Source of the DNA: Protoeuglena noctilucae | Taxonomy: Eukaryota | Direction of reading: 5' to 3' | Length of the DNA: 64,000 nt | Assembly (NCBI GenBank): GCA_958009085.1 | Contig: OY253690.1 | Span: forward strand, 62,001-126,000 | Translations under genes and position numbers: made by a program | Notes under the pieces: model-generated | Told to the model about the DNA's origin: nothing | The model's input: only the letters and a program-made list of their open reading frames with translations | Database searches by the model: none | In this document: positions 7,030-64,000 of the stretch, one piece after another | How the letters are laid out: every line of letters begins with the position of its first letter | Position numbering within the stretch: the first letter of the stretch is position 1

Positions 7030-7231
7030 GGTCGGGACGGTGCGGTGCGGGTCGGACGGGCCCCGAGCGTGCGCACTCCTCCTACTGCTCTATAGCGGCG
7101 TCGGCAGAGCCTGTCGGGCCCGCGACACCCGACCAACGCGCCGCCGAAAGCTGCAGCGTCTTGCATGAGCCGCGCGAGGGGGGTGTGCATCGATTTTCTA
7201 CCGTCCCGCGACCCCCCGCAGCACTGCAGTG

Positions 7232-10822: not shown

Positions 10823-11690
10823 GTGAGGGCAGGTCGGCGGGAGGATGGGCAATCAAGACGCTAGTGGGCGGGCCAGTGCAGTAGGTCGGGCTCCTGGGTG
10901 GTGCTGGTGTGCGGTGGGCAGGCTGTGTGTGTGGGGGTGGCCCGGTCTGCAAGGTCCGGAGGGTCTAGTGCAGTGAGCATAGATTGATGCTTTCAGCGAC
11001 ATGCCATGAGCAACGCATGCCGCCTTTTAAGAAATCGGCGCAGCTAGCTATAGGTGCGGGTCAGGACATGCACTGTGACGGGACAGACGCCGGGAGTGCG
11101 CAACATCACACGTCTAGCCCCGCTGCGACGCTGCCAGGCGCGGGGTGTCCCTCTGTTCCCTCTGCAGCGCGGTTGACGGGGAGAGCATGCGTGCTGGAGA
11201 AGCTGGCTCCGCCTGACGTGTGAAACGCTCCATCACGATCGCGAAGTCGCATGTAAAGTGCACGTGCGACGTGGCCGACTTGCGGGCCGGCCCGCGCGAC
11301 CATCGGTGCAAGCGCCAGCGCAGGCAGGCACAGCACGCAAGCAGGGTCGCCCCCACGCCGGCGATCGCGGCTTTCGAAGGAGGAGCCCGGGACCAGAGCG
11401 GGCCACTTCGCGCCGACAGCCGAGCAAGTGCGAGCGCGAGCTTTGCACCGCGAGCGTGCGATCGGAGAGCGAGGGGCTGACTAGAACTCGCGAGGCGGTC
11501 ACATCAGGTCCAGTGGGCTTCTGCGCCGCGTGCGAGGCCGGTCTCTGCAGCAGGTGAGCAGAGAGATGGTTGAGGGAAAGGGCACTGCGGGCGTTGGGGC
11601 TTCAGGCGCGGCGCCTGCGGCTGCTAAAGGGAACGCGCCCTTGGGCAGGGTGGACGGCGCGCGGGGATCGTGTCCGCAGGTCGGCGCGCG

Positions 11691-13364: not shown

Positions 13365-13979
13365 GCTGGCTAGGTGCGGCGGCTGCGACTTTGGGTGTCC
13401 CAGGTGGTGGCAGCGGGTCGCACAATGGCTGGGGTGGGTAGCGGCTCATGTGGGATGGGTGCGATGGGCGGGTTTGGGGTATGGAGCTTTGGTAGGGTAG
13501 CGAGGAGGGAGAGGAGGCAGTAGGGCTGCAGCAGTCGCATGGCTGGACAGAGCTTTGGCTGTCGCTAAGCACCGTGTTTCTTATTCGTATCTAAATGCTT
13601 TGGTGAGCCAGGATCCCAAGTGTGCCGATTGGCGAGGCTCAGCAGTGCAGCAGCGCTCGCTGGCTTGTGCTCCCCGTCCCTTTCAAAAATCACCAGCAAA
13701 CTGATCGCGGTCTATAATCACCAGATATCATCACGGGTCACACACGTCACGTCAGAGAGAACGCGTCGAGCGTCCACGGCCTCACACACATATCCCGCCA
13801 TCCATCTTCACCCATAGTAGTACTATGTACAGCACCCAGCCCACCTCTCTCTACGCACGCTGAACCCTTGCTCTCCTTCACAAGCGCGCCCCGTCCACTT
13901 CCACCTCCACCGCCACCGTCTGCACCCCCCTATCACCCATTCCACCTCTCCCTACCCACGCTTAACCCCCCTTTTCATT

Positions 13980-23146: not shown

Positions 23147-23251
23147 GATGAAGAACGGGTCACGCTCATTTCTCAATTCACCTCACAGCCACTCCGTGAC
23201 TAATATCCCCAGCCACGTCACAGCCACCCCATGACTACTTGTCGACCCCCT

Positions 23252-26200
23252 TCACAGCCACTCCATGACTATTTCCAGCACGTCCAGCGTCTCGATGTCC
23301 GCCTGGCACCCCAGCAGTGTCCCTACGCTGGGCTCGGTGCGGCCCCCGTCCCCGTGCACAAACTCCTTCACATAAGTGCCCGCGCTGGTCAGCAGGGCCA
23401 AAGCGATCGCATCGTCGCTGCCGGGCACGCGCTGGGGGAGGGGTGTGGGGGTACAGGGTGAGTAACAATGCGGGGTGGGCTGGGGCTGGTGGGCGGGTGT
23501 GAGGGATGGCATCGTTAGTGCTGGGGGTCGCGCATGGATCGCAAAGCAATGACCATCATGCGCTTTGTTAATGGACTGCTCACGGCACGGTCCACATCAA
23601 CCAACCCACCCATCTCATGCACTCTTCTCACCTCAACTGCCCCTCACCTCTGCCGCCATCTCACGCACTGCTTTCTCATCTAAACTGTCCCTCACCTCTG
23701 CCGCCATCTCGTGCACCGTCTTGTCCCTCACGAGGTCGGCGCGGCGGTGGCTGACGCGGACGGGCGTGCGCTGGTGCAGCGTCAGGTCCCGCAGACCCGA
23801 CAACAGCGCCAGGTCGGCATCCGTCTGTGTAGCAGGTGTGTGCGTGGAGGCAGGTCAGATTGTAAATAACGTCATCTCTTGCCAAGAGATGTGTGGTGAG
23901 AACGTGAGGTACAGAAATAGGGACCGTGGAAGCTAGCATCGTTATCGATATCGCCACCACCTCCCTGGCCTGCTTGCCACCCTTGCTGACACTCAGCCGC
24001 ACCGTCACATATCACCACATCCCCACTACCACCCCCATCCCCTTCCCTCCTCACCACAGCCCGGCTCAGTCGCACGGTCGCCAAGTACCGCTTCTGTTTG
24101 TCCTCCTCCCCCTCTTTCAGCATCCTCAGCTCCCCCGGCCCCACCAGCCGCAACCCCCGAGCCTCCACGCCCCCATATGTGTCGGGATCCGCCCTCAACG
24201 CTGCCTCTATCGCAGCCAGGTCGACGCGGTCCGGCCTGGCGACATGCGGGTTGGGCAGCTCGAGCACGAACGGGCGCCCCTTGCCCAGCATGCGAACATC
24301 CACGTCCTCGCGGCCCGCCGAGATCATCTTGTGGCCCTGGGGGGGGGTGAGAATACTAGAATTGAGTTGTAGTTGCTGGTACGAATCATGTGACATATGG
24401 GTCCGCGGTGATCATCTTGTGGCCCTGGGGAGGGTGAGGGTGACGGTGGGGAGTCGTTGTTGTCAGTACGATTCATGTGACGCATGGGGCCAATCAGTTG
24501 GTGCGCCTTGGTTGGCGAGCGATGGTACCGGTTGGTCGCTGTCTAACCCCTTCCCATGCAATGCATTGCCCCTCTTCCACTTACCTCCGCCTTCATTGCC
24601 GCCTGCACCAGGTCCCCGATCGCATCCCATGCATCCACCAAGCCTACTTATTACACAACACATAACACCCCTCTCTCACACACCTCTGCCTTCATCGCCG
24701 CCTGCACCAGGTCCCCGATCGCCTCCTGCACCGATGTGGTGCCCTGCCGCTCTCCGTCCACAAAGAAAGGCGAGTTGCTCACCCCACGCCGCGTCTTCAA
24801 ATAGTACCCGCCAATGAGGACAGGGTCACGCCAGGGACACGTGAGCACCTGGGAGGTGACAGGGAGGGTGGCAGAGGGGGTGGCAGGGAAGGTGGCAGGG
24901 AAGGTGGGGGTGGCAGTGAGGGGTCGAGATGAGCGTCCCCGAGCCCCAAAGATCATCAGCCATTCCCTGACACACACCTGAACAGGAGTGTCGGGTCTAT
25001 ACAAGGGCATGCCCATCTTGGCGTCCCTCAGCGCCCCCTCCCCCATCGTCGCCGCGTGGCTCAGTGCCTTGTTCGACAGAGGCAGGCTCAATTCCTCTGG
25101 CTGAGACAGCTCACGGAAGGTGCCGTCGCGGCGGCGCTTGCGGCTGCAAGGAGAGACGTGGGCGAAGTGTGCAAGTGGGGGGGGTCGAGGGTGGGTGACG
25201 GTGGCGGTGGCAGTGGCGGTGCCTGTGGCGCTGTCAAGATAGAGGGTGGGCGCATGTATAATGAAGATAAGCTAGTCATGCTGACTGAGCCAGTAAGGAT
25301 GCCTGCCTGATATCGGTGCCAATGGCGGGTCAGCGTATTGGCGTTCCCATGCCCCGCCACCCGCATCAATCAACCAGGCAGTCGCCTGACCCTCTCACCC
25401 GACGGTGGGCTTGATGGGCAGGTGCCGGGCCTCCCTGGCGGTCCCCCGGTGGGCGCAGTAGACGGACAGTCGGAGGGAGCTGGACGCCACGATGGGCTTG
25501 CCCACACGCTCCTGCAGGGGAGCCTCCATGGCCGCCCGCCACGCATCGCGCACGTCTGCGGCCATGCATGCGGCTTGAGGGTGGACGAGGCGATACGCGA
25601 TGATCGCGGCGTGGGGAGCGCAGTGCTCATGTAGGCCAACAGCTTATCGACGTATCATGACTATATCATGAGTATATCGTGAGCATATCATGAGTATAGC
25701 ATGAGTATATCATGGCTCGTGGCACGCGCTGCCGTGTGACGCCAAACCCCACATCTACTTTCGCCCAGCACAGCCATCGTGACGCTCACTGGCCATGGTC
25801 TCCCTTGCTGTGCAGGCCCTCACCTGTGATGCCCGCCATGGCGACGCGGTATCGCGAGAAGGTGGACCGCAGGTGCGACAGGACGCCTGCCTGACGCAGC
25901 GCCACTTGGGCAGGAACGTTCAGGTCCAGGCTGTGGGGGCGGGAGTTACGAGGGGGAGTGTGAGCATGCGGTCGCAGTGGTGCTGCTACTTGTGTCGAGT
26001 GACGCAAAGCTATCAGGTCACGCTCAGTCGCGCTGAGCAAACGCTGTGTTCTAATACAGCAAACACCATACACTCCGTGCACCACACCTGAAGACCTCCA
26101 CCTCGTGCCACTCAGCAACCACTGTGTTATCTCATGTTAATATAGCAATGTGCGCCACACCTGAAGTCCTCCACCTCGTGCCCCGATGCCGCCAGCTGTG

Positions 26201-27230
26201 TTATAGCAGAGCAGTGCCCTACTTTAGCAGTGTTTTGATAAAGCAGTGTTGTAGTAACGCAAAGCACATCGCGTCACCTGAAGTCCTCCACCTCGTGCCC
26301 CGACGCCGCCAGCGCCGCTGCGATGTCCGAGGGGGCGCCCCCGGCCGCCAGCCGCCACCGACGCTTCTCCATCCCCGGGGACTCGGCCACGTCCTCCCCT
26401 ATCACATCTGCGGGTGTGCTACTATTTGCAGATATACAAAGACCTTGACATGAATAACTGAAGAATGTCTTATGTAACCTAACCTTCCCATCCAATGGTC
26501 GACCAGCACTGAACAGACAAATGCCTTATGCGAGCAATTGGTCGACAGCTGCCATCGCTCGCTCACCCTTCCCCTTGCCGTTGTACCTCAGCCCCTCCGC
26601 CGTCCCCTCCTCCACCAGCTGCAACACGCCCAGGCAGACCACGCACACGCCTCCGGGTGTGTGGGGGGGGCTTGGGGCTGTGGCGGGTGCTGGTGTTGTG
26701 TCATTCGCTGGTGCTGTGTCAGGTGCTGCAGCGGTGTCCGGTGCTGGTGACTTGTCGATTGCTGGTCCTGTATCGGTTGCTCGTGACTTGTCCATCGCTG
26801 GCATCGCATCGGGTGCTGGTGCTGTATCAGTCGCAGGTGTTTTGTCGATCGCTGGTGTTGCCTCGGTTGCTGGCAGTGGCGGTGCAGGCAGGGCGTCCAG
26901 CGCACTGACGGCGGTGGGTGGAGGGGCGCGGTACGCGGCCGCATCCGACACGCCCACGAGGCGCAGGGCGCAGCGAGGACAGCAGCCCTGCGGGTGAACA
27001 TGGATAACATGGATTTCTTAGCGACATCCCCGGGCCTGCAATGCTGGCCCAAGCGTTGGCACGGACGGTCGTTCCATTACCATCGAACGCCTCTTTGCGT
27101 GCACCATTGTACAACCGTTCACCTGCGCGATCGCCTCCCTGGCCACGGGCAGCAGGTCCGCGGCGCGGTCCCCGAGCGGGCGAGAGAAGTACGCCAACGC
27201 GGGAGGAGGGTCGTCGCCCACCGTGCCCAT
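23252..27230 (-). CDS. PUS10: tRNA pseudouridine synthase Pus10
   Basis: CCPRC..CVVCLG zinc site, GGYYLKTRRGVSNSPF, catalytic-region SAGREDVDVRMLGKGRPFVLE, QRTPVRVSHRR, AGTYVKEFVHGDGGRTEPS..LDVLEI. Confidence 0.93.
25654..25713. repeat. Intronic about 12-bp tandem repeat (TATCATGAGTAT-like, about 5 copies)
   Basis: Read directly. Confidence 0.8.
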
Positions 27231-43375: not shown

Positions 43376-46300
43376 TCAGCAGTTGTGTTGCAATCCCATG
43401 CCGCACTCTATCTCGGTGCACCTGCTGTGCGAGAGTGTGCTGTCCGCGTCAGAGGCGCGAAGACCAAAATAGTGGCAGTTTTCAATGGCCACGTCCAACA
43501 CCGTTGCGTGTCCACCCCCTTGGCAGTACACGCCATCGCCTTTGCACCCCGTAATGCGGCCCCCCTTCACGACCACCTTAGTGTTCGGGCCAAAGCATGC
43601 CACGCCACACGCCTCGCAGTTGGCAATCTCCACGCCCCGCAACTCCGCCTGGCCACCGTCCTTGCGTCCCACCCCATGAAGGTCCTTAGTACCCGCAATG
43701 CGCCCCCCCTGCACAACCACCTTGCTGCCCTTTCCCGCGCTACCAATCCCAGCCACACAGCAGTCGGCTATTTCCATGTCCCGCACATCCACCTGCCCAC
43801 CATCTCCGCACCACACCCCAACGTTCTCCTTGCATCTCAAAATGCCCCCCCCTCGCACGACTACCTTGCTGCCCTTGCCGCGGCAGTGCACGCCAGACAC
43901 CTTGCAGTCGGCAATTGCCACACCCTGCACATTTGCCTGCCCACCATTTTCGCATCGCACCCCAACATGCTCCTTGGATCTCAAAATGCGCCCCCCCTGC
44001 ATGACTACCTTGCTACCCTTGCCGTTGCAGTGCACGCCAGACAGCTCGCAGTCGGCGATCTCCACATCCTGCACCTCCACCCGTGAGCCGTCTTCGCATC
44101 TGACTCCGTCATTCCCAGCACCCGTGATGCGCCCACCCTTTTCAAGCAATTTGGTGCTCTTTCCAAAGCTGTGCACGCCAGACTTGCAAGACTCAGTGAC
44201 GTCAGTGTCCCGCACCTCCACCTGTCCACCCAAATAGCACGCCACCCCATGCCCCGTTTGAGACCCACTAATGCGGCACCCCTGCAATGCCACTGTGCTG
44301 CCCGCTCTGCACGCGATAACGCCACACATACGGCAGTCGGCAATCCTGACGTTCTGCGCGTCAACCTGCCCACTATGACTGCAGTTCAGTCCATGGGCAG
44401 TCTTGGAACCCGTAATCCGGCCCCCCTGCATGACCACCTTGCCCTTCTTCCCGCACAGTACCCCCGACTCCGGGCTATCCACCACCTCTACGTCCACCAG
44501 ACTGACCCTCCCGCCATCAATGCAAAGGATCCCTGTTCCCACCACCCTCACTCCCTCCATCCGCAGCCGTCCCTTTCCCCGACAACACAGCGCGTACCCG
44601 TCACCCAGCACCGCAACCTCCACCCGCACCGTCCCGTTCCGCACCGTCGCCACCGTTTCCTCAAAGCCCACCTTTATCGCGCGCGTCAGCACCACCTCCT
44701 GGCCCCCCAGGTCCACCACGCCACCCCTCTCCACCGCCTGCGCCACCTCTTCCCCCGTCCACACATGTTGCGACTCGCTCTCCACAGATCGCCCCGCTGA
44801 CTCCGAGGCCCCTGCCGATTCCCCCGCATCCCCCGACCCCACCGCTGCAGGCCGCCTATCCCCCCTCGCCGCCCCCTCCGCCGCCCGCACCCTCGCCTCG
44901 ACCTCCGCCCACTCCAGCCCCGCGCCCCGCACCTCCGCCACCGCCTCCCACGCCGCCCATCGTTGCAGCTCGCTCGGCTGCGCCAGCACGCACGTCAGCG
45001 CGACCCACCACTCCTCCGCCCCTCCTTGTGCCACGGTCACAGCCGCCAGGCCCCTCGCGACCCTCTCCACGCCTCCGCACCGCTCCCTGCGCACAGCGAC
45101 ACGGCTGCAGTGTGACCCACCAGCGCCTGACCGCACCCACACGTGCAGCCCGCCAGTACTTGCATCTCGGTTTACCCCCCCCATGCCCCCACCGGTACCC
45201 CCCTCCCCGCCCCTCACCTGCTCTCCCTCGCCGCCCGCAGCATCTGCGCCACGCTCGTGCGCTCCCCCGGCCGCCCCACCAGCGCCCCCCGCACCGCCGA
45301 CCGCAGCGGCTCCAGCATCGACTCCGGCACCTCCGGGAACCGCCCCAGCGCCACCACGTCCGCCATCACCTGCATCGCGCTCTTGCCCCCAAACAGCGCC
45401 CGCCCCGACGCTGCAAAGCACAGCGTTGCCGCCGCCGAGTATGCGTCCGACGCCGCCGTGGCCGGTCCCAGCTCCGAGTCCCACGCCTCCGGAGCCATGT
45501 ACGGCGCGCTGCCCGCCCCCGCTTGCCCCCTGCCGCCTCGGCTGACCTGCTGCGGTGTCAGCAGAGAGAACAGTCCGTCAGCCAAAGCCGCAATGCACAC
45601 CACCTCGCTGGCGCTTCCCCGCACCACTCGAACCCTGGTCTGCACCATAACACTGTGCCCGCGCCCCGCCCCCGCATGTGCTCACCGGCGCCCCCATCCT
45701 CTCCGCCACCGTCGCCAGCCCGTAGTCCGCCAGCACCACCCCGCCTCCCTCCTCCACCAGCACGTTCGCCGGCTTCACACCCCCGTGCACGATTCCCCGC
45801 TCATGCAGCGCCCGCAGCCCCTACAGCACCTGCACCGCCACCTCCGCCACCTCCTCCGCCCGCAGCCCCGCCCCCCGCTCCGCGATGCGCCGCGCCAGCG
45901 ACCCCCGCTCGTACAGCGGCATCACCACGTGCAGCTGAGCGCCCCGCACGGCGACGCCCAGCAGCCTGCGTCACGCCAAGGCAAGGACAGGTCAGCTGCC
46001 GCCCTGCCCACAGCTGCAGCGGGGCGGACGCACGCACGCCACACGCCGCCGGACGGCTGAGCGGCTCATACTGCACACTCAATCACACACTCAATCACCA
46101 CCACCACCACCGCCACTACCACCCACGGCAAGCAAGCCACCGGCAGCGCAGTCTCACGGGCACACGTGGTCGATGCCCTGGCACGCCGCCGCCATCCGCC
46201 GCAGCTCCTCCATCCCCCGCTCCAGCGGTGCCATCTCCGTCCCCCCCGCCGCCCCGCCCATGTCCGCGTCCAGCCGCTTGATTGCCACGGCACCGTCATG

Positions 46301-47646: not shown

Positions 47647-49795
47647 TCAAGGATGGAGGATGCGTCCGACGAGGAATTCGATCTCCGCGTCCACGAGCTC
47701 CCAGTCGAGCGAGGTTGGTCCGAACGTGGGGAGCCCGTACACGGACTCTCGCCGGGAGGCGCGGCGGTAGGGGAACGGGTTGCCCTCCTGCACCCCGCTG
47801 TAGAGGTGCTTGCTGACCTCGCTGAGGATCTGGTAGTCGTAGAAGTGCCAGTCCGCGGCGAAGAGCTCCATCACGGCGCCGTGGCGCGGCATCCAGAGCA
47901 GGTTGGTGAGCCCGTTGCCGTGCACGCCCACCATGAGGTTGACGTGGGCCGACAGCCGTACCTGCTCGGCGACCGTCATGGCGTCGAACTGCATCACCTC
48001 CAGCGCCACGCCATGCCGCACGAGCATCAGCGTCTCGAGGCGAACGATGTCCTCGTCGCTCAGCTCCCGCAGGCTGTGCGGCCGACGCACGTACACGGCC
48101 CGGAGCTCCCCGGGGGAGCTGGGCCGGGCCTTGGGCGTGGCCCCCGCGGCCCGGCACACGGCGGCGTAGAACTCCGGGAACCAGGCCGTCGCGGGCAGCA
48201 CCGAGTGCTCCAGGGCCTTGTTGATGCGGACGGCCGTGCGGGGGAGGTTGAGGGCCATGCCGTGTTTGGACGCGACCACGGCGGCGTCGAGGCGGCCGTT
48301 GCCGCTGGTGACGACGCGGGCCCCCGGGAAGAGCGCGGAGACGAAGAAGTCGTGGATGGGGGGGTTGTAGGCAGCGGGGTCGACCACGGCCACCTCGACG
48401 CGACGCCAGCCGCGGTCGGGCCCGCCGTACTCGCGGGACCAGGTGAAGAGACCCAAGAGGCACTCGACGGCGTGGTAGTAGTGCCCGTTGCAGAACCAGT
48501 CCTGTGCCTGGAGCACCACGCCGTATTTCGCTGACCAGTCGAGGGCGTGGCGGGCGGGGCGGGTCGCGTCGGTGACGCGCATGTCGTCTCGGAGCATGAA
48601 GGTCTGGTCAGGCTCGAAGCCGGCTTGCGGGAAGTCGGGGGGCAGGACCCAAAGGGCCGGGGGGTCGATGAACAGGCCAGCCTCGAAGGTCTGTTGCTCT
48701 GCGGGGGGCGGAGAGGGGGGGGGTGGGGTGGTGAGAGAGGCTGCATAGCGTGGTGGTGGGCAGAGCAAGGCAAGCGGCGGAGACGAGGAGCGATGGGGTC
48801 GGTGTGAGAACGACCGAGTTGGACCGAGTTGCAGGGTAGATGTGGCGAGCAAGGGGGATGCAGGGAGCGTGCGCGAGAAGGGTGTCGAGGAGAGTGCCTT
48901 TGCTAGCGCGTGACGCAGCCCATCACACCCACGCCTCGCCTGCGTACTCCATCAGCGTCGGTTCGTGCGCTTCGACATCGACTCCCGCCTCTGCTAAAAA
49001 GGCAGGGACCACCTCTGCCAGCCGCTGGCCCTCCCACAGGCGAAAGACCAACGGATCACGGTGCCCCGGGACGGTCACGTCGAACGACAGAACGGGCATG
49101 AAGCGGTACTCCTTGACGAAATCCGCGACTTCGCCAACGATGTGCTCGGGCCCGCACTGCGCCCGCGAGTCGGGATGGCGTGTGTGATGGCGCGCCACGC
49201 TGGCCTGCCCACCCCCGCGACGCGAGGAGGCTCGATTGATTGGGGACGCCTATCCGCGCATCTTACCTCTTCCTTCCCGGCCGGCACGCGCGTGCTGACG
49301 TCCAGACCCTTGAACAGGGGCAGCGCACACGTCCCGCCATCGTCCTTGTTGACGATCACCGACCACTCCGCCAGGCGATGCTCCAGCACAGCCTGCGGAT
49401 TCAGCGAGAGGAGCATAACTGAACTGCAGAAGCGTCCTGGGCCCGCGAGTCGCCTCCGCGGCGCGGCACGCGTTTCGTCTCGCCTCTCGTACAGCCTCCC
49501 GCGCCAGGGACTCGAAGTGGGCCCCCTTGTCGCGATGCTCCTTGATGAACGGCTTGAAGGCCTCATCCAGCAGCTCCGTGCCGGACTGGCCGAAGGGATA
49601 GGTCCGGCCCGCGACCGCAATCGTGGTCTGCGGCGGTTGCCATGCCGACGCTCCCCTGGCGCCGAGCCTGGGGAGAGGCGGGTCGAGCGGACGTGAATAG
49701 GTACTGTTCGCTTTCGAGCGCCAGCACGCGCGTTCCGCGGATGCCGCCGCTCACCCCAGCAGCCCGAGCGCTGCGAGCAGGACGGACAGGAGCAT
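47647..49795 (-). CDS. Glycosyltransferase family 61-like protein with signal peptide (paralog B)
   Basis: MLLSVLLAALGLLGLGARGASA; WFCNGHYYHAVECLL; QFDAMTVAEQVRLSAHVNLMVGVHGNGLTNLLWMP..VMELF; about five exons. Confidence 0.85.
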
Positions 49796-50358: not shown

Positions 50359-53300
50359 ATGGCCAAGCTTGCGTTCAAACACGCGTCCTTTGAGGGGCGC
50401 CACATTGGCGACAATGAGCTCCGGGCCATCGAGGTGGGCGGCCGCGCAGCGCTGCGGCGCGGGCGGATGCACGGGCCGAACTGTCGGCCGAGCTAGTTGT
50501 CACGCTCGCCCGGCGCCCCCTGCCCGCCCGCAGGAGTGCGACCTGGTGCTCGCGGAAATAGGGCACACGGAGCCCATCTACGAGGCCGCTCGGAGGTGCG
50601 CGGCGTTCGCCGTCGCTGCGGCGCGCGGGTTGTTTGCAGAAACAGCTGGGAAGGAACTGCGGGCCCCCTTTGACGCCCTTCCCGCTTGTTTTCCGGACCC
50701 CGCAGGATCAAGACGCAGATCTTGGGCGAGGCCGGGTGGTTCCATCTGAACCTGGGCAACCTGGACCTCGGGGACAAGGGCGCGGTGCAGGTGGCGCGCA
50801 TCCTCACGCACTCCCCGCACATGGGTGAGCGAGAGCTTATGTGGGGCTTGAGGGTTGGGAGATGATGGGGACTTTGATTGCTTTCAGTAACCGCCAACAG
50901 CAACAGCACCCTTAACACCAGGGGCGGCCTTGCGCATCGCCTGTGAGAGTGTGACATGGTTTTGATGTCATCTGCTTTCCAATCGCCCGCAGTCAAGAAG
51001 GTCATGATGGAGGGCAACAAGATCGGTCCCGAGGGCGCCAAGGCCATGGCGCGGATGCTGGTGCACAACAAGGACATGATCGTGCTGGTCATGCAGTCCA
51101 ACGAGGTGAGTGAGTGAGTGATGGGTACCAGCAAGGGTGCTGGTGCACAACAAGGACGTGATTTACAACGTGCAATATGGCACCATCATCACCCGTCACC
51201 AACCAGGCCAAGCAAAGCACCTCTAGCCACCACCACCCCCTACCTCACCCCCCCTGCCCACTCACCCCTGCCCCTGCCCTCACGCCACCCCCACCGCCAC
51301 CCCCATCACCACCCCTACTGCCGCCCCCGCTGCCACCCCCACCGCCACCCCCACTGCCACCCCTATCACCACCCCCACTGCTACCCCCATCGCCACCCCC
51401 ACTTCCACCCCACTCACCCCCTTCACAGGTAATGGACGAGGGCGCGGCTGCCATCGCCGAATCCCTCCACGTCAACGCCTCCCTCGAGATCCTCGGCCTC
51501 CACACCAACTTCCTCACCGACAAGGCCGGGATCGCGTTGGGCGACATGCTGGCACACAACCGCAAGCTGCGCGTGCTGTCGATCAACCACAACGCGATCG
51601 GGGACGAGGGGGCGAAAGCACTGGGGGAGGGACTGAAGCATAATGCGAACCTGGAGGGTCTGTCGTTCAGTTTCAATTGCGTGACGGACGCGGGGGCGGT
51701 GGCGTTGGCTGAGGCGCTGCCACACAACAAGAAGCTGAGGCACCTGTGAGTGGGAGGGAGAGGGGGTGTTAGTAGTTGAGGCACCTGTGAGTGAAAATGA
51801 GGCTGGGGTGTTGAGAGCTGTGGCACCTGTGAGTGGGTGGTTTCGTAGTGGTGGAGGGCTAGGTGGCGGGGGAGAGCGGGGAGCAGTGGGCGTGTCAGAG
51901 GGCTGGTTTTGATGCCCACATCTTTCTCACTCCTTAACCCCCACCCCTCGCTCTCAGTTGGGTGAACGGCAACCCGGTGGGCCAGGAGGGCCTGGAGGCA
52001 CTGGACTGCCACGTGCGGTGCAACCGCACCATCCAGCAGATACGGCTCACGCTGCACGGTGAGTGGTGGATGGATACGGATAGATAGAGAGGGATAGAGA
52101 GAGAGTGTGTGTTTGGTAAGTACGGCAGTCGATTGTCACACTCACTCCCTCACCCACTCATCACTCCTCCCACTCACCATGACCACACTCACCCCCACCC
52201 CGTCACCCCACCCAGGCTACGACCAGTACCGAGAGATGGTCGACGACAGCACTCACCCAACGACACTAATTACACCATCTCACTCACTCTCCCCCATCCC
52301 CCATCCCCAGGCTACGACCAGTACCGAGAGATGGTGGACGAGAGCGCCGGCACGGGCTTCCAGGCGCTGGGCACCGGGCCCCACCGGACCAGCGTGGAGT
52401 ATCGCAAGGACGTCCCCTACGCCCCCAAACTGCCAGAGATGGCTGTTTCAAACGACTCGGTGCGGCCGAGCGTGGAGGCGGCGTCGGGGCTGTTCACGCC
52501 CAGCCGGGGGCTCAGCGGGGAGGGGCAGAGGGAGGGGCAGGCGGAGGCGGTGCGGTGAGTGGTGTTGCTTTTGTTGAGTAGAGGGATGGGGGTGGTAGTG
52601 ATAGATAGTGATAGATGGGGCAGAGGGAGGGGCAGTGCGGTGAGTGAGGGGTGGGGGGTGGGGTTGAGAGGTGGTGATGCGGCGTGGTGGTGGTGGTGGC
52701 GTGCTGTAGTGGTGACGTGTTGGTTCACCCTTATGTATCCTCACCAACCCCACCCCTTCTCACCCCCACCCCCAGTGCCCTCTTCAAGCCCGACAGCGCC
52801 CACCCAACCTACCGCTCTTGTCACCCCCAGTGCCCTCTTAAACTCACACCCACCCCTGTCCCTTACCCCTCCTCACCCCCAGTGCCCTCTTCAAGACCGA
52901 CAGCGCCATCTCCCAGGCATGGTCAGCTGTCCCCGGTAACACCCACAGCCACAGCACCGCCCACCCCAACCCCAACCCCTACTATGACGCATCCACTGCC
53001 GCCTCCGCCACCCTCACTAGCGGTGCTACCCGCACCAGTGGTGGTGCTGGCGCGAGCACGGGCGCTAGCATGAGCGCTGCAGGTGCGGGTGTGGGTGCGG
53101 GTGCGGGTGCAGGTGCGGGTGCGGGTGTGGGTGTGGCAGCCATGGGCAGCAGCGGTGGGGGTGGTAGCGGTGTGGGTGGCGTGGCGAAGGGTGCGGTGGG
53201 TGGTAAGGTGGAGGTGGTGGGCGAGGTGGATGAGGGGCGGGACGAGGATGGGTTTGCGGATGCGCGATCAGATGTGGGATTGGGGGAGTTGGAGGGAGAT

Positions 53301-54077
53301 GAGGAGGGGGAGGAGAGGGAGGGGACCGAGTCGGAGCGGTACACGCCCATGGTGAGAGACGATTGGTTATGAATGTATTGGGTTGTATATGAGTTGGATA
53401 TATATGAGTTATATATGGGATGTGAGGGAGGGGACGGAGTCAGAGCGGTACACGCCCATGGTGAGACATCGATGGGTTTGCTATAAGATATGAATTGGTT
53501 GTTGTAAATGAGTTATATATGAGTTGTATATGAGATGCATCGGATGTGGGGTGAGAGTCGGGGCTGTACACGCCCATTGTGAGATGATCATGAGACGGGA
53601 GATGATATGTGGATGGACAGGATAAATATATCGGTTAGCAATTCATACAGCCTCCATCCATGCTCACCACCTTAGCGACTCCCGCATCTGGCAGACCCAC
53701 ACCCACACTGTCACCCACTCACTAGCCATCACTATCACTCACTCACTCACTATCTCTTATTCATTTCTCTCCTTCATTCCCCTTATCCACAGGTCCCTAA
53801 CGACTCCCGCATCTGGCAGGCCCACACCGGGGCCTGGGGAGCGGGTGCCCAGCGGGCCATCCACACCGCAACCCGCGCCTCTGATGTCGGTGCCACACCC
53901 ACCCCCCTCCACCCCGCCCCGCACCCCCGCTTCAGCCCTAGGGGCCCTTTGGGAGGTTTCCGGGAGAGCTTGGATGCTCGCGCGAGGAGCAAGGGCGTGT
54001 CGCTGGATGTGGGGGGGCAGAGGGACAGGCGCATCACGGTGGACTTTGGGGGTCCGCCGCCCAGGGCGATCAAGTGA
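50359..54077 (+). CDS. Ribonuclease-inhibitor-type (28-aa) leucine-rich repeat protein with a low-complexity C-terminus
   Basis: Repeats NKIGPEGAKAMARML, LRVLSINHNAIGDEGAKALGEGL, FNCVTDAGAVALAEAL. Eight exons splice in frame; ends PPRAIK-TGA. Confidence 0.85.
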
Positions 54078-54902
54078 GGGAGATTGGGTGGGGGTGGTGG
54101 TGGTGGAGGTGGTGGTGGGGATGGGTGTTGATGGGCGGGGGGGGTGGGTTGCAACAAGGGAGGTGGAGGTGGGATGATGCGTTAATGGGAAGGGTGGGAC
54201 TGCATGGGAGGTCTGCGTTGTGAGCTGAGGGGGTGCGTTGGGGTGATGAGGAGGTTGGGATGGAGGGCGTGACTGGGGGCACACCGGCCACATTGTGCAA
54301 GTGTATATCTGTACAACGCGTGCGCATCTGTGCAGCACGCACGCGCACAGCTGTGCCGCACCCCACCCGTCCTGACCCTGCCGCCTCTCCGCGACCCCAC
54401 AGCGCGCGCCCCGTGCTTTCCCCTCTCCCCTTCACTTACTACTTCTCTGTCCCAAGCATGCGAGCTGCGACACGGGCAGAGCCACGCACTCTCATGTTAC
54501 CCGCCCACGCACACTGTAAACTCACAAGCTGTGGGCAATGGCAACTTGCTTACCCTTTCCGCGTGCCGAATAACTACTAGATACCTGCCAAGTCACTAGA
54601 TATAATAACTGCCGAGTAACTGCTGCCAAGAGTCGCTGCCTTGCGAAACACCCACGGATCTCGCAGCGCCTTTCAAAAGAGCGCCTACCCCAGACCTCTC
54701 GTCTTGAGGTCATCGCCTGCTGCGTTTTTCCCCATTCGCGTCCTTTTCTCGCGTCCTTTTCGCACGAAACATGTCGCATGTCGCGCTTGTGTCATGGCGA
54801 ACCCCCGCCACAGCTGCGCTCGCCAGCGCTCTCGGCCTTTCAAACCCTTGCCGCGCATTTCCGGACCCTATGAGGGTGCTCTATGAGGGTGGAGTGCATC
54901 AG

Positions 54903-54977
54903 TCAAAAGCACGTCTCGTTTCCTGCTCCTGTCAAAGCACGTCTCGTTCCTTGCTCCTTTCAGAGCACGTCACGTTG
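54903..54977. repeat. About 28-bp tandem repeat, roughly 2.6 copies (TCAAAGCACGTCTCGTT..TGCTCCT)
   Basis: Read directly; intergenic. Confidence 0.8.
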
Positions 54978-55893
54978 TGCAGACACGCGTGTGTCGGGCC
55001 ATCACAACTAACCAACAGGCTATGAGCCCGAGATAAAAGAGTGCTGACTGTTCTAACTGACTAGGCGGGCTTGTGTGTCGGAGATGGAAGAGAGATGGGC
55101 AGAAAGAGAGGGTGTTGAGACGTTGAGACTCAGACGGAGGGGGGAGATGAGATGGGAGATGAGCGTGGGGGCGGAGAGTGCGTGGGTGCGCGCAAAAGTG
55201 GGGTGGTCAAGTGGCTGTGAGCGGCATATTTAGTGAATGGTTTTCTTAAACATGTCATGTGCGAGCATGTTGCGGTTGGCAGGCAGCGTTGCCTGGGCCG
55301 CTCCGTGCGCCGTTGTCGCCTTTCCAGCTCCCAGCTGCTTTAACCCTTTGGTTGTTAGGGTCCCGTCCCTTCCCGTCCCTTTCCAGCGCCTTTGCGCCTT
55401 TCCGTGTTCGCATAACACTGCTCTCGCATACTCCTGCATGTTTGCAAGAGACTTTCCATGCAAAAGCGAAGATCACGGATCATCGGTTCACGGACCAAAC
55501 CCTGGGCAGGGACTGGCGCTTGAAACGAGGCTGGTAGACGCTGTCAGTGTTCTCGAGGCAATCAATGCGAGAGTGGGCGGAGATGAAAATTGAGACATCG
55601 GGACGACAACGATGGCGCAATGGTAAGGAACGATTGCAAGTAACGATGACCCCAAATGCCTTCAAGGCATGTCTCTAATCGCTCATCATCATCTTTACAA
55701 ATATCCGTAAAGCACTACCGCGCTGGCAGCAGCACAGGTACTATCGACAAATGTTACCGCCAATCGCGAGCAAGAGGCTAAAGGCTACCAACCAGCTACT
55801 CTGAAAAGAGAGACTTCTGCTTCTCGACAAGTCCTGAGCCGCTATAGATATATATATCGACTATCTATATATGCATCGCTGTATGAACTGCCA

Positions 55894-58800
55894 TCACGCG
55901 TCTTCCGTGAACGAGGGGGCCTGGTTGCTAAAGATCTGGGGGGGTGGGGAAGGGGGTGGGGTGAAGCGAGGGAGAGCGGTGATGGGGTGAGTTTACGAGT
56001 AATTTGAAACATCAATTTGAAGCATACTCACAATAATCCCATCTCCCATACCAGTCCCCAATCACTCGTCTCATCCGCCAAGCTCCCCTCGATTGCCAGC
56101 CACCGCGCGTGCTCCCTCACCCACACCCACAGCCACGCTCACTTCACGTGTTGCTAACAACAGCCCCTCTCAATCACTATAGACACGAGTAACCTATCAC
56201 TCGCCTCATCCGCCAAGCTCCCCTCGATTGCCAGCCACCGCGCGTGCTCCCTCACCCACACCCACAGCCACGCTCACTTCACGTGTTGCTAACAACAGCC
56301 CCTCTCAATCACTATAGACACGAGTAACCTATCACTCGCCTCATCCGCCAAGCTCCCCTCGATTGCCAGCCACCCTGCGTGCTCCCTTAACACCGCCTCC
56401 CTCGCCGCCCCCATCACCGCCGCCGCCCGCTCCAGCGACCCCCCCGCCCCCGGCAGCCGCGTATTCGATCCCTTTCTGTCCTTTTTGTCCCTTTCACCGG
56501 CGAGGATCGAAGCCCGCGCCTGGGCCAGGGCGGTGGCGGCGCGGCGCTCCAAGGCGGCAAAGGCGGACGACGCCTGAGATGGGGTGGCCTGGGGTGGAAA
56601 AGTGGTTTTCTCAGAAAAAAAGGTAAATGATAGGTAAATGGGAGGGTGAGGGGCATGGGAGTGAGTGCAAGTGAGAGGGCAGCGAGAGCGGGTGACGACT
56701 GCGACGGGGTGGCCTGGGGGTATGGAAAGGGAGAGGGGCATAATCGAAGTGACTGTAAGTTACAGTAACAGTAAGCACGGGAGTAAGAGAGAGGGGTTGG
56801 TGTGTGCGGGACAGTGCTGTCTCACCCCACCCCCCCATCGCATCTCACCCCCCTCACCCTCACTGCCCACCCCACCCCACCCCACCCCACCCCTCACCCT
56901 CTCCATCGCCCGTCGCAACTCCTCATCCATCTCCACGAAATCCCTCGCCACTTTTCTCGCCGTGATGGTCGCGCACGCCAGTTGCTTTGCCCTACGCCGT
57001 ATCTCGTGCGCCCGGTGCTTGGGGGGGAGCTTGGAGAGAGATGGCTGGGATGGGGGGGAGGAGTGGGGGAGATATAAAACGTTTTTGATTGGTTAATTAG
57101 GTCATGTAGTAGTTCATGTGTGACTATATTTATCGCATGTTGTTATTTATGGTAATAGATGGCATGGTATCGCCCTGACTGTGGCCCAATCACTACATGT
57201 AAGTATAATCATCATAATAATAAATCATTATCACTTAATCGCATTCCCCAATCCAATTCGCTCACCGCGATGCCTGGGTCGCTCATCACGGCGGCCTCGG
57301 ATGAGGCGTACAAGTCACGCAGCCACGCCACGACCTGTGGGGCAGGGTTAGAGAGGTGGTAAATGAGAGTCGAAGATACGTGGTAGGGACAGAGAGGTGG
57401 TGGATGTTAGTTGGCGATATGTGAGCGTAGTGAGTGTGGCATACACGTCACGCAGCCACGCCACCACCTGAATGGGGGGTGAGGGGGGGGGGGGTGGGGA
57501 GTAGAGAGTTAGCGATATGTGAGTGTAGTTATTACAAATTATATGAATAAGATCACAGTTGGTGATAAAGTCGCACCCTCTCCCACTCCCTCCCACTCTC
57601 ACTATCACCACCCCCCCCTCCCCCCACCCCCCTCCCCACCCAACTCACCCGCACCCTCGCCGCGCCCCTCTCCTCCCCGCTCCCCGCCTCCGCCCATTCT
57701 TTGACAGAGTCCGCATCCATGAGCATCGCCTCACACAGAGTCGCCTCGTCCTCCACAGCGATACGGGCGATGTGGTCGCGGAGACACAGGGCCTGGGGGG
57801 GGTTAAAGGGGAAGTTGTTCGTAGTAGTTAATGGAAGTGATTGCGGCACTGTTATGGTGCATCGGTAATACAGTTGAATATAGTAAGCAGCATCTTCCAC
57901 GGCAATGCGGGCGATGTGGTCGCGCAGGCACAGGGACTGGGGGGGAAGGGGAATGCGAGCAGTTATGCTGTTGATGTGGTGTGTGGACATGTATTGATAA
58001 AAGCGGCCTATATTAGTAGCATAATCACTACCAAAATCAGTATCCCCATTCCCACGCACCAGCGCTTCCCTGCGCATCTCCCTCTGTGTCTCTGACACCC
58101 ATCACCATCACCATGACAATTACCATTCATTCTCTCAGTAACTATCAATATCACTCTTCCAATTATTGCTAACCACTCACCAGTGCTTCCCTGTGCAATT
58201 CTCTCTGCGTCTCTGACGCCCATCACCATCACCACCCTCACCATCACCCCCACTCTCACTATCACCATCACCATCACTCTCTTACTCTCAGTCACTCTTT
58301 TAGTACTTATTAATACTAACCACTCACCAGCGCCTCCCTGTGCAATTCTCTCTGCGTCTCTGATACCCTCTCCTGCCCCCTGGCCGGGTCCCTCCGGAAC
58401 GCCACGCTGCCCTCCACCTCCCCCAATGCTCTGTTTAAATCCGATTCCGCCCTCGCCCACAGATCCGCGTGAAGCGACGCGCGGGTGGGGGGGTCGGACC
58501 AACTCAGGCGCAACTGCGGTGGGTGCGTGGGGGTGGGTGGCAATGGGTGAGTGAAGAGAGCAAGGTACGTTGACGTTGAATATGAATACAGCGACTGATG
58601 ATAACACCACATATACAAAATAGTTTATACACTACACATGCCATCTACATCTCTAAACCCCATCCCCACCCCACTCCTCTCGCCTGCGTGACGGGGTCGC
58701 TCGCCACGTACCGCCGCACCAGCCCCTCCACCATCAGAGCACGAACCGCCCCGGCCAGCGCCTCCGCATCCATCCTCGCCAAAGCACGTTCCCCGCACCC

Positions 58801-61800
58801 CTGGGCCACCAGCGACCGCACCCCCGCGCCCTGGGCCGCCCGCACCCTCGCCGCCTCCGCCACCGCCCCCGCCTCCGCCAAACGTGCTTTGCACCACTCC
58901 TCGCGAATGGCCGGATCGGGGGACGCGGCCGCCTCTCTCGCGCCACGTTCCCAGTCCGGATCGCGCTCCACGATCGCCACCAGCACCCGCACTGCCAGGG
59001 GCCGCTGCGATACTGGCACCGATACTAGCGCCGATATTGGCACCGATACTGGCGACGAGTCAGGCCGGGGGGAGTCGAACAGCCACAGGGCCAGGGCGCC
59101 CGCGGGGAGCGAAGACGGGTCGGTGATGTTACCGAGACCGTTGCCAGGAACGGTAGTGGTGATAATAGCTGGTGTAGTAGCAGTGTCCTCTACGATCGTG
59201 TTTGGGGATGCGAGGGTCATGGACGGACCCGCTTCACCATCGCTCGAATTAATACTGACATTGGCATTGGCATTGGCATGGGTATTGGCATTGGTGTTAC
59301 CATTCCCAGCTGTGTTGAAGACAGCGGGGGTGTCACCCACCCCGCTCGCACCCCCCGCATCGCCCACCCCACCGCCACCACCACCCCCACCCCCGCTCTC
59401 CCCACCACCCCCACCCCCACCACCCCCCCTTCTGTGCATTGTGCTTGTGGACAGGACAAAACGAGCCGCGATGTTGTTGGCGCGGGACGACGCCTGCGCG
59501 AACACCCTGGGCCTGCCGCCATTGTCGTCGGTGCCAGTTTTGGTGCCAGTGTTGGTGTCAGGTTGCGGTGCCAGTGTGGCTGTTTCACGGGGGGGTGCCT
59601 GGATGAAGCCCTTGCCGCCGATCTCCTCCCTGCGATTGCGATGGTGGAGTGGTGGAGATGGTATCACAATTTAGAGATGATCTGCTTTTCGCTTTGCAAT
59701 TGAGAGCGTGTACCACCACCACTCCACTCCCCCCTCTTTCGCCAACTCTCACCTCCTGCTCTCCTCTTGCTTGATCGCATAGTACATCGTCCGATACTGG
59801 TCGTCCTGCACATCCCCCGCCGCCCCCGACGCCCCCCTCGCCAGCACCGCCCCCAACGCAATCACCGCGTGCTCCGCTAACACCGCATATAACAGCATTT
59901 GCGTTTCCGACGACACCCCAAGGGATCGTAGCACGACGCGCGCGGCCATAGCACGATCGCCCGGACCGTACCCCTGGGTCGTTAAGGTGTAATTGGTGAC
60001 GGGGATATAAGTAAAGAACATAATGGCGAAGTTGGTGAGGACTGCCAACGCGCAGACGGCCCCGAAGCAGGCGTGCCAAAGACCGATGGTGCGGATGCCG
60101 CTGCGATTGGGGGGGTGGGGGGGGCTGATTGTGAAGGGGTGGGTGAGCATGGGGGAGAGTGGTTGTGAGTGAGTGAGTGAGGGCGATGGTGTGGATGCCG
60201 CTGCGATTGGGGGAGGGGGTGGTGGGAGGGTTGAGGTGGCATAGTGGGCGCCAGCTCGACTGCTGTGCATAGCATAGTGTGCAATCTGTTATTCGAGTTA
60301 CACTTATACAACCATCCCCCTTTCTATCAGCCTCACCTGGGTGCCGCCATGCGGCTGTACCGGACCAGCTTGGCGGCGTCGATCCGTATCTCCAGCACGT
60401 TATTCGCCAAACACAGAATAGGCGCCAGTGGGAACACGACCACGAACATCGCGAGCCACGAGAACTGGATGATGAGCTCCAGGTACTCAGTGCTGAGGTC
60501 TTGGGGCTCGGACCGCTTGCGCTGGGAGACCAGGCTGGGGGGGGGGGGGGTAAGTAGTGTTGATTTTTGTGTTGCAGTGGGTGGGAGTAGAGGGATGAGT
60601 GGGGTTAGTAGAGAAGTGGGGTGGTGGTGGGGTGGATCAACGCTCTTGCGCTGGGGGACAAGTCTGGGGGGGTTACAAGGGGGGGGCTGGTGTGTTCTTA
60701 GTAGTAGTGTAAGTGTGGAGTGGGGTGTGGGGTAGCGATGGGGTGGGGAGGGGCGAGGTTGGGGCATGCTTGCACTGAGAGACCAGGCTTGGGGTTGGGG
60801 GGGGGGAAGGGGCGAGTGGGATGAGGTGGAGTGGGAGTGGGGTGAGGGGCTGGGGTTCGATAGGTTAGAGGGGTGAGTGGGAGTGGGCGGTGGGGTTGGT
60901 AAAATACATGGAATGGCGGTTCTACATGAATATGCTTGATATACACTAATACTCCCTTGCCTGTACCAGTAGGTCCTGTTCCAGCACCAGTTGTACGAGG
61001 GGTGCATGAGTGTTATCAGATATAGGCAACACATCTAATTCACATCCAATCTATTAATATTCGAATCTCTCACCTGTACCAGTAGGTCCTGTTCCAGGAG
61101 TAGTTGTGCGCGGGGTGCAGGCACAGCAAATCCCTGTATGCCTGACTCTCATCCATATCGATCAGCGATCCCTCCGGATAAACGTTATCCAGAAATAAAG
61201 GCTGCTTGTGGTTGCTGGAGCGGGCGCGGGTGAGGGCGTGGGACAGGAGGCGGGAAAAGGTGGGGTAGGCAAGGGAGAGGGGGCTGCCGCGGTCGCCCCT
61301 GCGTTGCATATTAGAGGGGTGGGAATTTAAATTTTAAAATTTGAAATTGTAATCGAAAAGTATCATTGGCTGAGGCAAAGAGTATCGATTGTAATGTGGG
61401 GTAGGAGAGATGAGAGAGGGCGCTGTTACGGACGCCCCTCCATCACCTCAACACCCCTTCACCTCTCCACCACCACTCACATCACCCCCACCCCCCTCAC
61501 CTCGGCTCCATCATCACCCCCAACACCCCCTCCGCCCTCCTCTGCGTCATCTCCCTGACTGTCGGATTCCTGGCCCATTCCACCGCCATCCGAGCCGCCG
61601 CGTGAAACACACGGCCGCCCTCACGAGACGCGTGGTTGCCCAGGACCTGTGAGTGTGTGTGTGGGGGGGGAAATTTGAAAGTGAATGAGCAATGGATAGT
61701 AGCATGTGTACTATCCATTCCTAAACGCGGTAATTTAATCAGCACCCTTGCAAGAAGCGGGGTTGCCAAGGACCTGTGAGGGGGGGGGGGAGGAAGATTT

Positions 61801-64000
61801 GAATTATATAAGCGATCGATGTCAGTATGTGACAATGTTTGTCTACGTAGCACCTATCCCACACACCACCCCCCCACCACTTGCCACCCCACCACCCCCA
61901 TCACAGACTCCCCCCTGCCCTCATCCCAACTCACCACCTGCCACCCCAGCCTCCGGAACTCCGCCCGCGTGTCCCTCGCCGCCCTCTCAACCGCCGCATC
62001 GCGGGACGGCGACGACGATAGCACAGACGACCACGACCCTTCCCCACGCAACGCCGACGGCCGCAGCAGCTCCGGGGCCAGCAAAAGGTCCGCCGGGTCG
62101 CGGTACTCCGCCCCGGGATTCGATCCGCGACCGCTCGGGGTGCCGGGGGAAACGGGGGGAGGTGCACCAGCGGGTGCGCCGGAACGTGCTGTGGCTGCAC
62201 CGGAACGTGCTGTGAGCGAGTGGGGGCGCGTGGGGGTGACACGTGCTTCGGAGGATCTCAGAGAGAGACTTTGCAGATCTGTGCGATGACGATCGCGGTC
62301 GTTTGCGGTGGTCCGTCGCAGCTGCATGCGCGCTGCTTGCGCTTGGGCCGCGTAGGTGAGACGTCGGTACAGAGCCATTCCCCACGGCAGTCCGATCTCT
62401 TTCATCTGATTGAGGACTTGGCCGGTCAGGAGCAGGGAGATGATCTGGGTCTGTGGGGGAGGGGGAAGGGGGGGTGGGGGTTGAGTAGGTGGGGGGAGAG
62501 TAACTGTGTAGTGAGGAGCAGGGAGATGATCATTGGCACCAGTCGATTATACAGTACTATTTACAGTGACCTAGTGCGCTACGCTCCACCACCAACACAG
62601 CCACCCAACCCCCCGTCCCCACCCCCATCCCCCTCCCCCTCCCCAATGACCCTCTCTCGCCTGCAGCTGCGCCCAGTCCTTTCGTATGAACGCGATGTAG
62701 AAGAGCGATATATTGGCGTTGAAGGTGAAGAACACGAACAGCCGCGTGGCCATGGCGTTGGTGAGGGAAGTGTCAGTGCGGTGCATCTCCCAGTCAGCAA
62801 GGCGGGACGAGGCCCAGACGTACGCGGACTGCGATTGGAAATGGGTTACAAATCATGAATATATGTAATGTAATATATGATATTATAGTATTTATGATAT
62901 GTTGCATCTCCCAGTCGGCAAGGCGGGACGAGGCCCAGACGTACGCGGACTGCGAGTTGTATGAAAAGAGGGATATGTTTTCAGTAAACATGTAGATATA
63001 GATATGTTATACATACAGACATATGCGATGGGACGAGGCCCAGACGTACGCCGACTGAGACGCAACAAGGTGACGGTGGACGAGATGCACCTGTACTACT
63101 ATCAGATACGAATCACATTGTCGTTATGAGTATTCTGAATCCAAAGCACATGTTCACCTGCGATACCGGGATGATAAGCCCGTTCAGCACCCCCGTCACG
63201 GTGCATGCGATGCAGCTATGCTACTGTTTCACCGATACTAATATTAAAACTACTATTGCTCAATATAAATCATATTCACCTGCGACACGGGTATGATGAG
63301 CCCGTTCAGCACCCCCGTGACCGTGGATGCGATGCGGGCGGCAGTGGCGGTGGTGACGGACCCGGGGGACCACAGAGTGGCGCCGAACAGGGAGCCGTCT
63401 CGCAAGTTGCTCTCGATCGTCTGCGTTGATTAGGGAGAGATAATGGTTAAGTGTTTGTTACTTTATCTATAAAGTTGCTCTCGATGGTCTGCGAATAGTT
63501 AGCCACGGCTGTTACCGCCGCCACTCAATCATTAACTCTGATCAAAGTACTTTAACTCAGTGTAACCACTATTCCTCGCCTGCAGCAGTATCATGATCCC
63601 CAGCGACGCGAGGCAGGACACGGCCAGCAGCGCCACGGATGCACTGGCACGCAATGTGCGCTGGAATGATGGGATGTAGTAGACGTCGCCATATGCGGCG
63701 AGGTCGGCCCTGCATGTGATAGGGGTGTGGTTATTAGTATTAATAGTGTGTTTTGTTAATATTGGCAGTCGTATACTAGTAATTAAAACGATAAACCCCA
63801 CTCCCACCAACAACCCCCCCTTCACTGGGGACTCCCCATACACACCTGATCTGCCTCTCCCTCGCCACCGCGTCCCTCCCCTTCATGTTCAGATTCAAAG
63901 CCTCGAACATCCACGCCATCACGCGGCGCTGCTTTCTGGCGTCCGCGCTGCTCAGCTGATCATCAATGCGAGCCACGAACTCTGGCCGCACCGATTGGGA
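55894..64000 (-). CDS. Anoctamin/TMEM16-family channel or scramblase with a long C-terminal extension; 5' end is off the window
   Basis: LADWEMHRT..RLFVFFTFNANISLFYIAF, QVLNQMKEIGLPW, EYLELIIQFSWLAMFVVVFPLAPILCLANNVLEIRIDAAKL, IGLW..LAVLTN, EH motif. Downstream exons continue in frame to PSFTEDA-TGA. Confidence 0.88.
56061..56390. repeat. 135-bp near-perfect tandem repeat spanning an exon end and donor site
   Basis: Unit starts ATCACTCG at 56061, 56196 and 56331. Confidence 0.95.

Follow-up and report, generated by a model that had tools for sequence, protein, structure and literature searches.

Introns in the genome of a marine green alga contain diverged copies, which we call echoes, of the end or the start of the neighbouring exon, mostly with a splice site still attached. 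Echoes differ from the working exon chiefly at silent codon positions, and the intron sequence beside them has diverged far more than their exon-like part. From this pattern we consider it moderately probable that each echo is the once-coding exon end or exon start of a diverged allele or homeolog, joined to the resident gene by imprecise recombination and now decaying neutrally. The organism has light-harvesting genes of the green lineage and occurs in marine metagenomes, and is on these grounds taken as a marine green alga. Its genome comprises 26.3 Mb in 27 contigs; the stretch of DNA analysed here (the window) is 64,000 nucleotides long and corresponds to C23:62001-126000.

The focal intron belongs to an anoctamin-family gene, in which we read 14 introns by hand and saw at least one echo by eye in 10 (Table 1). 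The exon end at 58328, SETQRELHREAL followed by gtgagt, recurs in echoes that end at 58181 and 58060, 147 nt and 268 nt into the intron, with periods of 147 and 121. These three copies are real. As the first-pass annotation of this DNA had described, the nearer echo has two silent changes over the 12 exon-end codons, and the farther one has four silent and two replacement changes (SETQREMRREAL) as well as a silent change in the preceding Val; omitted from that description were two changes by which the codon just ahead reads Ala in the nearer echo instead of Val. When both echoes are counted over the same 41 nt, the order holds, with four changes in the nearer echo against seven (five silent, two replacement) in the farther. 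In alignment, segment I0 gives 64/79 columns against I1, with large indels, and 44/97 against I2. No acceptor tract lies ahead of the donor echoes, and the donor of echo 1, if used, would keep in-frame stops in the transcript. The acceptor echo stands 144 nt ahead of the real acceptor and differs from the next exon start mostly by silent changes; its use, at 57936, would add 48 residues in frame without a stop, and the single RNA contig skips it. In that contig the 535 nt are excised whole (CT..AC), with 109 letters on the short side of the joint.

The left junction is common to both focal echoes; the third copy therefore came from an echo-bearing unit and was not newly made from the exon. Echo 1 equals the exon where echo 2 has silent variants, and both intron segments end in the same junction; to judge from these letters, the series would fit unequal exchange in which both alleles already bore echoes. 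Allele-like silent differences would also be expected if assembly had stitched two haplotypes together in tandem. However, contigs from independent wild short-read DNA cross all three copies with 0 differences (0 other letters over 57650-59359 in run X5 and over 57650-58336 in run X6; two samples from one study), and RNA splices across them, which refutes an assembly artefact at the focal locus and leaves it hardly credible as an explanation at all. Copy number at the locus is the same in the two wild DNA runs, in contigs that drop rare variants.

Table 1 Features of the focal intron and of other echo-bearing introns in the window
Feature	Position	Strand	Basis
Anoctamin-family gene	56500..64000, past window end	-	Pfam PF04547 on exons 60339-60533 (E 3e-18) and 62661-62828 (E 5e-11)
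Functional exon, anoctamin-like gene, end ...SETQRELHREAL	58328..58513	-	RNA contigs join 58684-58513 and 58327-57791 (cut +1); open frame
GT-AG intron, 535 nt, two donor echoes and one acceptor echo	57793..58327	-	RNA joint
Intron segment I0, after the used donor; terminal junction motif common to I1	58220..58327	-	Alignment
Echo 1, exon-end copy with intact GTGAGT donor, skipped	58175..58219	-	Sequence and RNA
Intron segment I1, diverged homolog of I0	58101..58180	-	Alignment
Echo 2, exon-end copy SETQREMRREAL with GTGCGT donor, skipped	58054..58100	-	Sequence and RNA
Acceptor echo: pyrimidine tract, AG, 44-nt copy of next exon start (SLCLRDHIARIAVED)	57893..57950	-	Sequence and RNA
Next functional exon, start ALCLRDHIARIAVED	57649..57792	-	RNA and open frame
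Intron, 539 nt, one donor echo and two acceptor echoes	60535..61073	-	RNA joint
Intron, 451 nt, one donor echo and two acceptor echoes	62829..63279	-	Sequence; region without RNA cover
Donor-echo series at 109 and 227 nt, another gene	53308..53584	+	Sequence
Donor-echo series at 117 and 190 nt, another gene	26077..26313	-	Sequence
Donor echo; 135-nt unit (intron piece and echo) duplicated recently, almost exactly	56050..56387	-	Sequence

Four echo-bearing introns, the focal one included, are covered by RNA joints from one run, and at each the outermost sites are joined and the echoes skipped; all sequence runs were in the form of contigs, in which expression levels are unreadable. Elsewhere, the exon ending at 56898 is joined in one RNA contig to the echo acceptor at 56713 and in another to the true acceptor at 56588; use of the echo acceptor (intron 56589-56898, minus strand) would shift the frame and alter the C-terminus. 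If used, 76 of the 83 echoes in our curated set would lead to a frameshift or stop, and 7/83 to an open in-frame insertion. Mutually exclusive or cassette exons would combine an acceptor with a donor and be included in frame, a combination that the echoes do not present. GC donors are frequent: among the curated donors, a genome-wide sample, 8/41 true donors read GCGAG, and RNA supports the GC-AG intron at 58514-58683. In the intron at 57335-57648 and in most others that we read, the 5' half is rich in G and T and the 3' half in C and A. The two halves look complementary; they could fold back and thereby draw the splice sites together. These genes offer a natural test of splice-site choice, in that near-identical donors and acceptors ~100 nt inside the intron are skipped. 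Echoes can also mislead gene prediction and mimic haplotype mis-assembly.

We scanned the window and 80 stretches of 10 kb for exon ends repeated in the adjacent intron (864 kb, ~3% of the genome; 25 of the 80 stretches were selected beside the window on C23). The detector returned 567 matches at 40-600 nt and 16 at the control distance of 1040-1600 nt, and a blind hold-out of 140 kb gave nine sites against none in the control; echoes are thus far beyond chance. A loose filter kept 207 sites (control, 7), and a strict filter with de-duplication kept 81, of which 12 were rejected by eye as mirror matches, a wrong site, low complexity, a stop-codon repeat or, in two cases, for lying at ~590 nt. 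The resulting curated set of 69 splice sites and 83 echoes comes from the window and 21 of the 80 stretches, on C5, C8, C13, C18 and C23; no sites were kept in 15 stretches of C1, C2 and C20, and echoes were present on five of the eight contigs sampled. They are common but patchy, within intron-rich patches: by eye, 22 of the 27 introns of the anoctamin and PRP28 genes hold at least one. Among nearest echoes, length ranges from 10 to 49 nt and the median distance is ~105 nt; no frame is clearly preferred (27/24/18). Two genes hinted at a chromosome-polarity bias of echoes, but inspection of their neighbours by eye did not bear it out. Insertion of whole introns together with both flanks was dropped as a general rule, most hand-read introns being one-sided.

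The genome itself alternates between intron-poor regions of long open reading frames and intron-rich, lower-GC patches of tens of kilobases, as seen in window positions 1-13400 against 50500-64000 and in samples from C5, C8, C18 and C23, with at least two patches each on C23 and C8. Long reading frames of the window at 43379-45577 (-), 8267-10819 (+), 11628-13361 (+), 41851-43077 (+) and 47650-48951 (-) encode, by product type, two beta-helix proteins, an ankyrin protein and two glycosyltransferase-61 proteins; the frame of one beta-helix protein contains a 144-nt coding repeat. Local duplications with a period of 45-110 nt, apparently mostly or wholly non-coding, occur at 13833-14032, 37194-37427, 41331-41521 and 52767-52907, and a short duplication covers the stop codon of a gene at 23179-23276. 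By its motifs, this last gene may be that of the pseudouridine synthase Pus10.

The first-pass annotation had proposed that copies arise beside the exon and are pushed into the intron, so that intron length records successive duplications and nearer copies are the more similar. Its view of length is borne out: introns grow by junction-anchored units, with ~96 nt added per echo (Spearman 0.84) across the 27 introns that we annotated by hand in two genes, 22 of which hold an echo (lengths were read by hand, a few being off by 1-2 nt, and one of the 14 anoctamin introns was dropped for uncertain ends). A general gradient did not emerge. After one of 24 multi-copy series had been dropped for a spurious second match, the nearer echo was closer to the exon in 12 series and the farther in 7, with 4 tied (sign test p=0.36); outside the five series named as graded, the split was 8:6:4 with 38 mismatches against 38. 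Of those five, four do have the nearer echo closer, by a margin of a single base over the common length in the series at 26277 and 62828, and the series at 60534-60788 is reversed in its exon-like part (three mismatches near, two far, over 19 nt); in the intron 60535..61073, the farther acceptor echo is the closer match. Private replacement changes number 13 in farther and 6 in nearer echoes, which is not significant and gives a weak hint that farther echoes may be older on average. Several sister echoes share a junction or share differences from the exon, and were therefore not derived from the exon independently.

The nature of the differences argues against birth as identical copies. Over 698 codons, the 83 echoes show 92 silent and 58 replacement differences from their exons, distributed 31/27/92 over the codon positions; frames outside the two hand-annotated genes came from a self-trained codon model. 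The ratio pN/pS of echo against exon is 0.22 (CI 0.15-0.32), ranges from 0.19 to 0.30 across settings and is 0.25-0.30 with the 12 rejected sites kept. The silent excess persists for donors and for acceptors, outside the window and without curation. In a test that makes no use of frames, 90/153 mismatch pairs were a multiple of three apart, although such pairs are not independent. The blind hold-out points in the same direction, with six silent and two replacement differences in nine echoes (ratio 0.12, CI 0-0.83), and is not significant alone (p=0.07). Identity is 92% in the exon-like part and 59% in the intron flank, against 52% between unrelated introns; at donor positions 7-12, ungapped identity is already 57%. 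Donor flanks are still homologous (0.47 against a same-locus null of 0.31), and a GC donor is kept in 7/8 cases; acceptor-side flanks do not exceed the same-locus null (0.35 against 0.33, n=13).

These values bear most directly on plain local tandem duplication across the splice junction, by slippage, staggered nicks or sister-chromatid repair, the model of the first-pass annotation. Copies would be born identical, and the pattern would come from uneven rates, with simple-sequence introns and silent exon sites both evolving fast. Head-to-tail geometry, a narrow period with a median of ~105 nt, the near-exact recent unit duplication at 56050-56387, the presence of intron-only duplications and the tracking of intron length by echo number all speak for it, and tandem duplication surely accounts for some second copies. 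However, when a copy is born identical and the exon alone is under selection, silent changes accumulate on two branches and replacement changes on one, so that pN/pS should be at least 0.5. Copies simulated in this way under the same extension and trimming rules gave 0.58-0.60, and not one of 600 runs fell to 0.22 or lower; when 5-7% of coding-phase change per copy was added, the ratio was 0.24-0.27. G-C transversions alone, which are blind to GC bias and deamination, give a ratio of 0.095 (p 1e-5). Born-identical copies should have flanks ~93% identical, and only 1/66 flanks is at least 85% identical. A general rank gradient is absent, and three different rates would be needed within 100 nt. 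As the sole process, tandem duplication is thus largely rejected, and we regard it as an improbable account of the echoes, whose silent excess and near-saturated intron flanks do not agree with birth as exact copies.

A second alternative takes the echoes for old duplicates whose likeness to the exon has been maintained by selection or conversion, be they splice decoys, alternative sites or tracts exchanged with the exon, which would drift at silent sites while the echo is held. Saturated flanks beside a well-kept exon-like part would follow, the joint to the echo acceptor at 56713 shows that an echo can be used, and the seven open in-frame echoes have the lowest ratio, 0.09. Echo splice words are also kept, GT or GC in 37/41 and AG in 23/25, yet the loss of the dinucleotide in 6/66 is what neutral decay at ~4% per site would give. 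The 76 echoes that would cause a frameshift or stop still have a ratio of 0.24 by themselves (p 1e-5), the four introns with RNA joints skip their echoes, two-way conversion leads by our own derivation to a ratio of at least 0.5, and matching introns are absent from the PRP28 gene of a relative. We therefore consider this alternative unlikely.

Echoes keep the GC3 of exons (0.895 against 0.898). We found no directional codon shift, the commoner codon being in the echo 48 times and in the exon 35 times. CpG deamination was rejected as a cause, since CpG-context transitions are symmetric (20 in exons and 19 in echoes, of 89) and G-C changes carry the strongest excess. An allele-like difference between copies, with a silent excess and diverged but homologous introns, is what homolog-templated insertion or imprecise allelic recombination would leave behind, and it is the difference found here.

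Once in the intron, echoes appear to have lost coding constraint. Their replacement spectrum is no milder than random and includes two stops, and an outgroup agrees with the exon at 9 of 10 replacement differences. Differences common to sister echoes are nine silent and one replacement, and those of far echoes only are six silent and 13 replacement; later decay of echoes looks neutral on these counts. Against this single outgroup, silent-site polarity was uninformative (4 echo, 3 exon, 2 neither), two of the 18 polarity rows having been dropped as mis-picked.

Displaced alleles or homeologs, our preferred origin, could have become echoes as follows. There would have been two homologous versions of a gene, with exons that still matched and introns that had drifted far apart, both coding for most of their separate history, and imprecise recombination would have joined them head to tail in cis. 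The process would start in the exon, where a break or a switch of template 10-50 nt away from the splice site would let the exon side pair with the homolog. Copying would then run through the exon end of the homolog and on into its intron, typically for 40-120 nt. Pairing would fail within the unlike intron, and the end would be rejoined to the remaining exon end of the resident. One version would stay as the working exon end and the other would be left inside the intron. With splicing from the outermost sites, the protein would be unchanged; the event would therefore be nearly neutral, and like events deeper in exons would be purged. Only events near splice sites would survive, because outermost-site splicing removes the surplus. 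The echo would then decay at all sites, by ~4% so far, and further copies would come from new events or from unequal exchange of the echo-bearing unit, as may have happened in the focal series and at 56050-56387. Standing alleles, a partner in hybridisation and a homeolog since lost are all candidate donors; we infer not only the donor but also the route of repair and which of the copies is old.

Searches for a surviving donor gave the following. In the parts compared, wild contigs, themselves found by near-identity, differ from the window by one letter and show no diverged haplotype. In the genome, the focal exon has no close paralog, and the next match of comparable length to a PRP28 exon has 40% identity. 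A search for relatives with the focal exon gave 36 candidates, none significant, and one with the PRP28 exon gave none above 78% protein identity. The closest relative found (78% over the query exon) has PRP28 as one open frame, where this alga has 14 introns (PRP28/DDX23, L031:1911-8292 here against L093:2422-4614 in the relative). These introns were either gained in this alga or lost in the relative; the comparison suggests that large lineage-specific intron gain may have occurred in patches of the genome.

A broader reading, to which we give about even credence, is that the introns of this alga are an archive of displaced alleles, left where deeply diverged haplotypes recombined imprecisely, time and again, in many conserved genes of several chromosomes. 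Chimeric introns would then hold ex-coding exon ends of lineages that are no longer elsewhere in the genome. If true, introns would grow and turn over here by a route not yet described, and a single haploid genome would hold a readable record of past hybridisation or hyperdiversity. The growth and turnover of introns are not well understood, and most introns carry nothing that would reveal their source. In this alga, the exon copy that marks each added piece has two clocks: its silent divergence goes back to the time when it was coding, and its decay at all sites to the time since displacement. Origin from alleles, if true, would tie intron expansion to recombination between diverged genomes.

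Several known processes bear comparison with the echoes. Insertion of an introner or transposon would give inserted parts that form one sequence family, with a short target-site duplication of fixed length; the repeats here are 10-49 nt long and variable, and a search that sets a lower bound found no non-simple copy of the focal intron elsewhere in the genome. Intron sequence can also be moved, with direct repeats left behind, by break repair or by recombination between gene homologs; here only part of an intron entered an existing intron together with a 10-50 nt exon copy, and no donor paralog is present in the genome. Internal gene duplications, discussed by Gao and Lynch in 2009, are said to be partial intragenic duplications that include splice sites, and to have been treated as same-chromosome copies. 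We know of no allele-like silent excess in them.

A review of intron gain by tandem genomic duplication describes an exonic AGGT segment that is duplicated (PMC3443670). Exon-like sequence in the intron, local duplication and an intact protein are common to that process, as it is set out there, and to the echoes. From that outline we deduce that such a new intron should begin with the downstream exon start and end with the upstream exon end. The order here is the reverse (donor, intron piece, exon-end copy ... exon-start copy, intron piece, acceptor), and an existing junction was copied.

The architecture as such is already known from human junction-spanning minisatellites. In intron 7 of human F7 (Borensztajn et al. 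2006, PMC1557585), the exon end and donor recur in the intron as a 37-bp unit that is present 5-9 times and has identical pseudo-sites, and it was shown experimentally that the most upstream donor is used and the copies are silent. Here too, the first unit spans the exon-intron border, and the outermost site is used with silent copies at four RNA joints, although one contig uses an echo acceptor. In contrast to F7, near-identical units of fixed period are not seen (flanks 59% identical, 1/66 at or above 85%; periods 147 and 121). There are mostly one or two copies per side, ~50-170 nt apart, at donors and at acceptors, in most introns of two hand-annotated genes, with unlike intron tails and mostly silent differences. 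Our literature search, which most subscription journals lay outside, yielded F7-type repeats and general papers on intron gain, and no description of such copies as bearing an ex-coding or allele-like signature. For exon-favouring exchange between very divergent genomes, hypervariable Schizophyllum commune provides a precedent. The available part of that study (PMC4209137) concerns crossover positions and not leftover exon-end copies in introns, and it reports that crossing-over between genomes ~14% apart prefers conserved exons and avoids introns.
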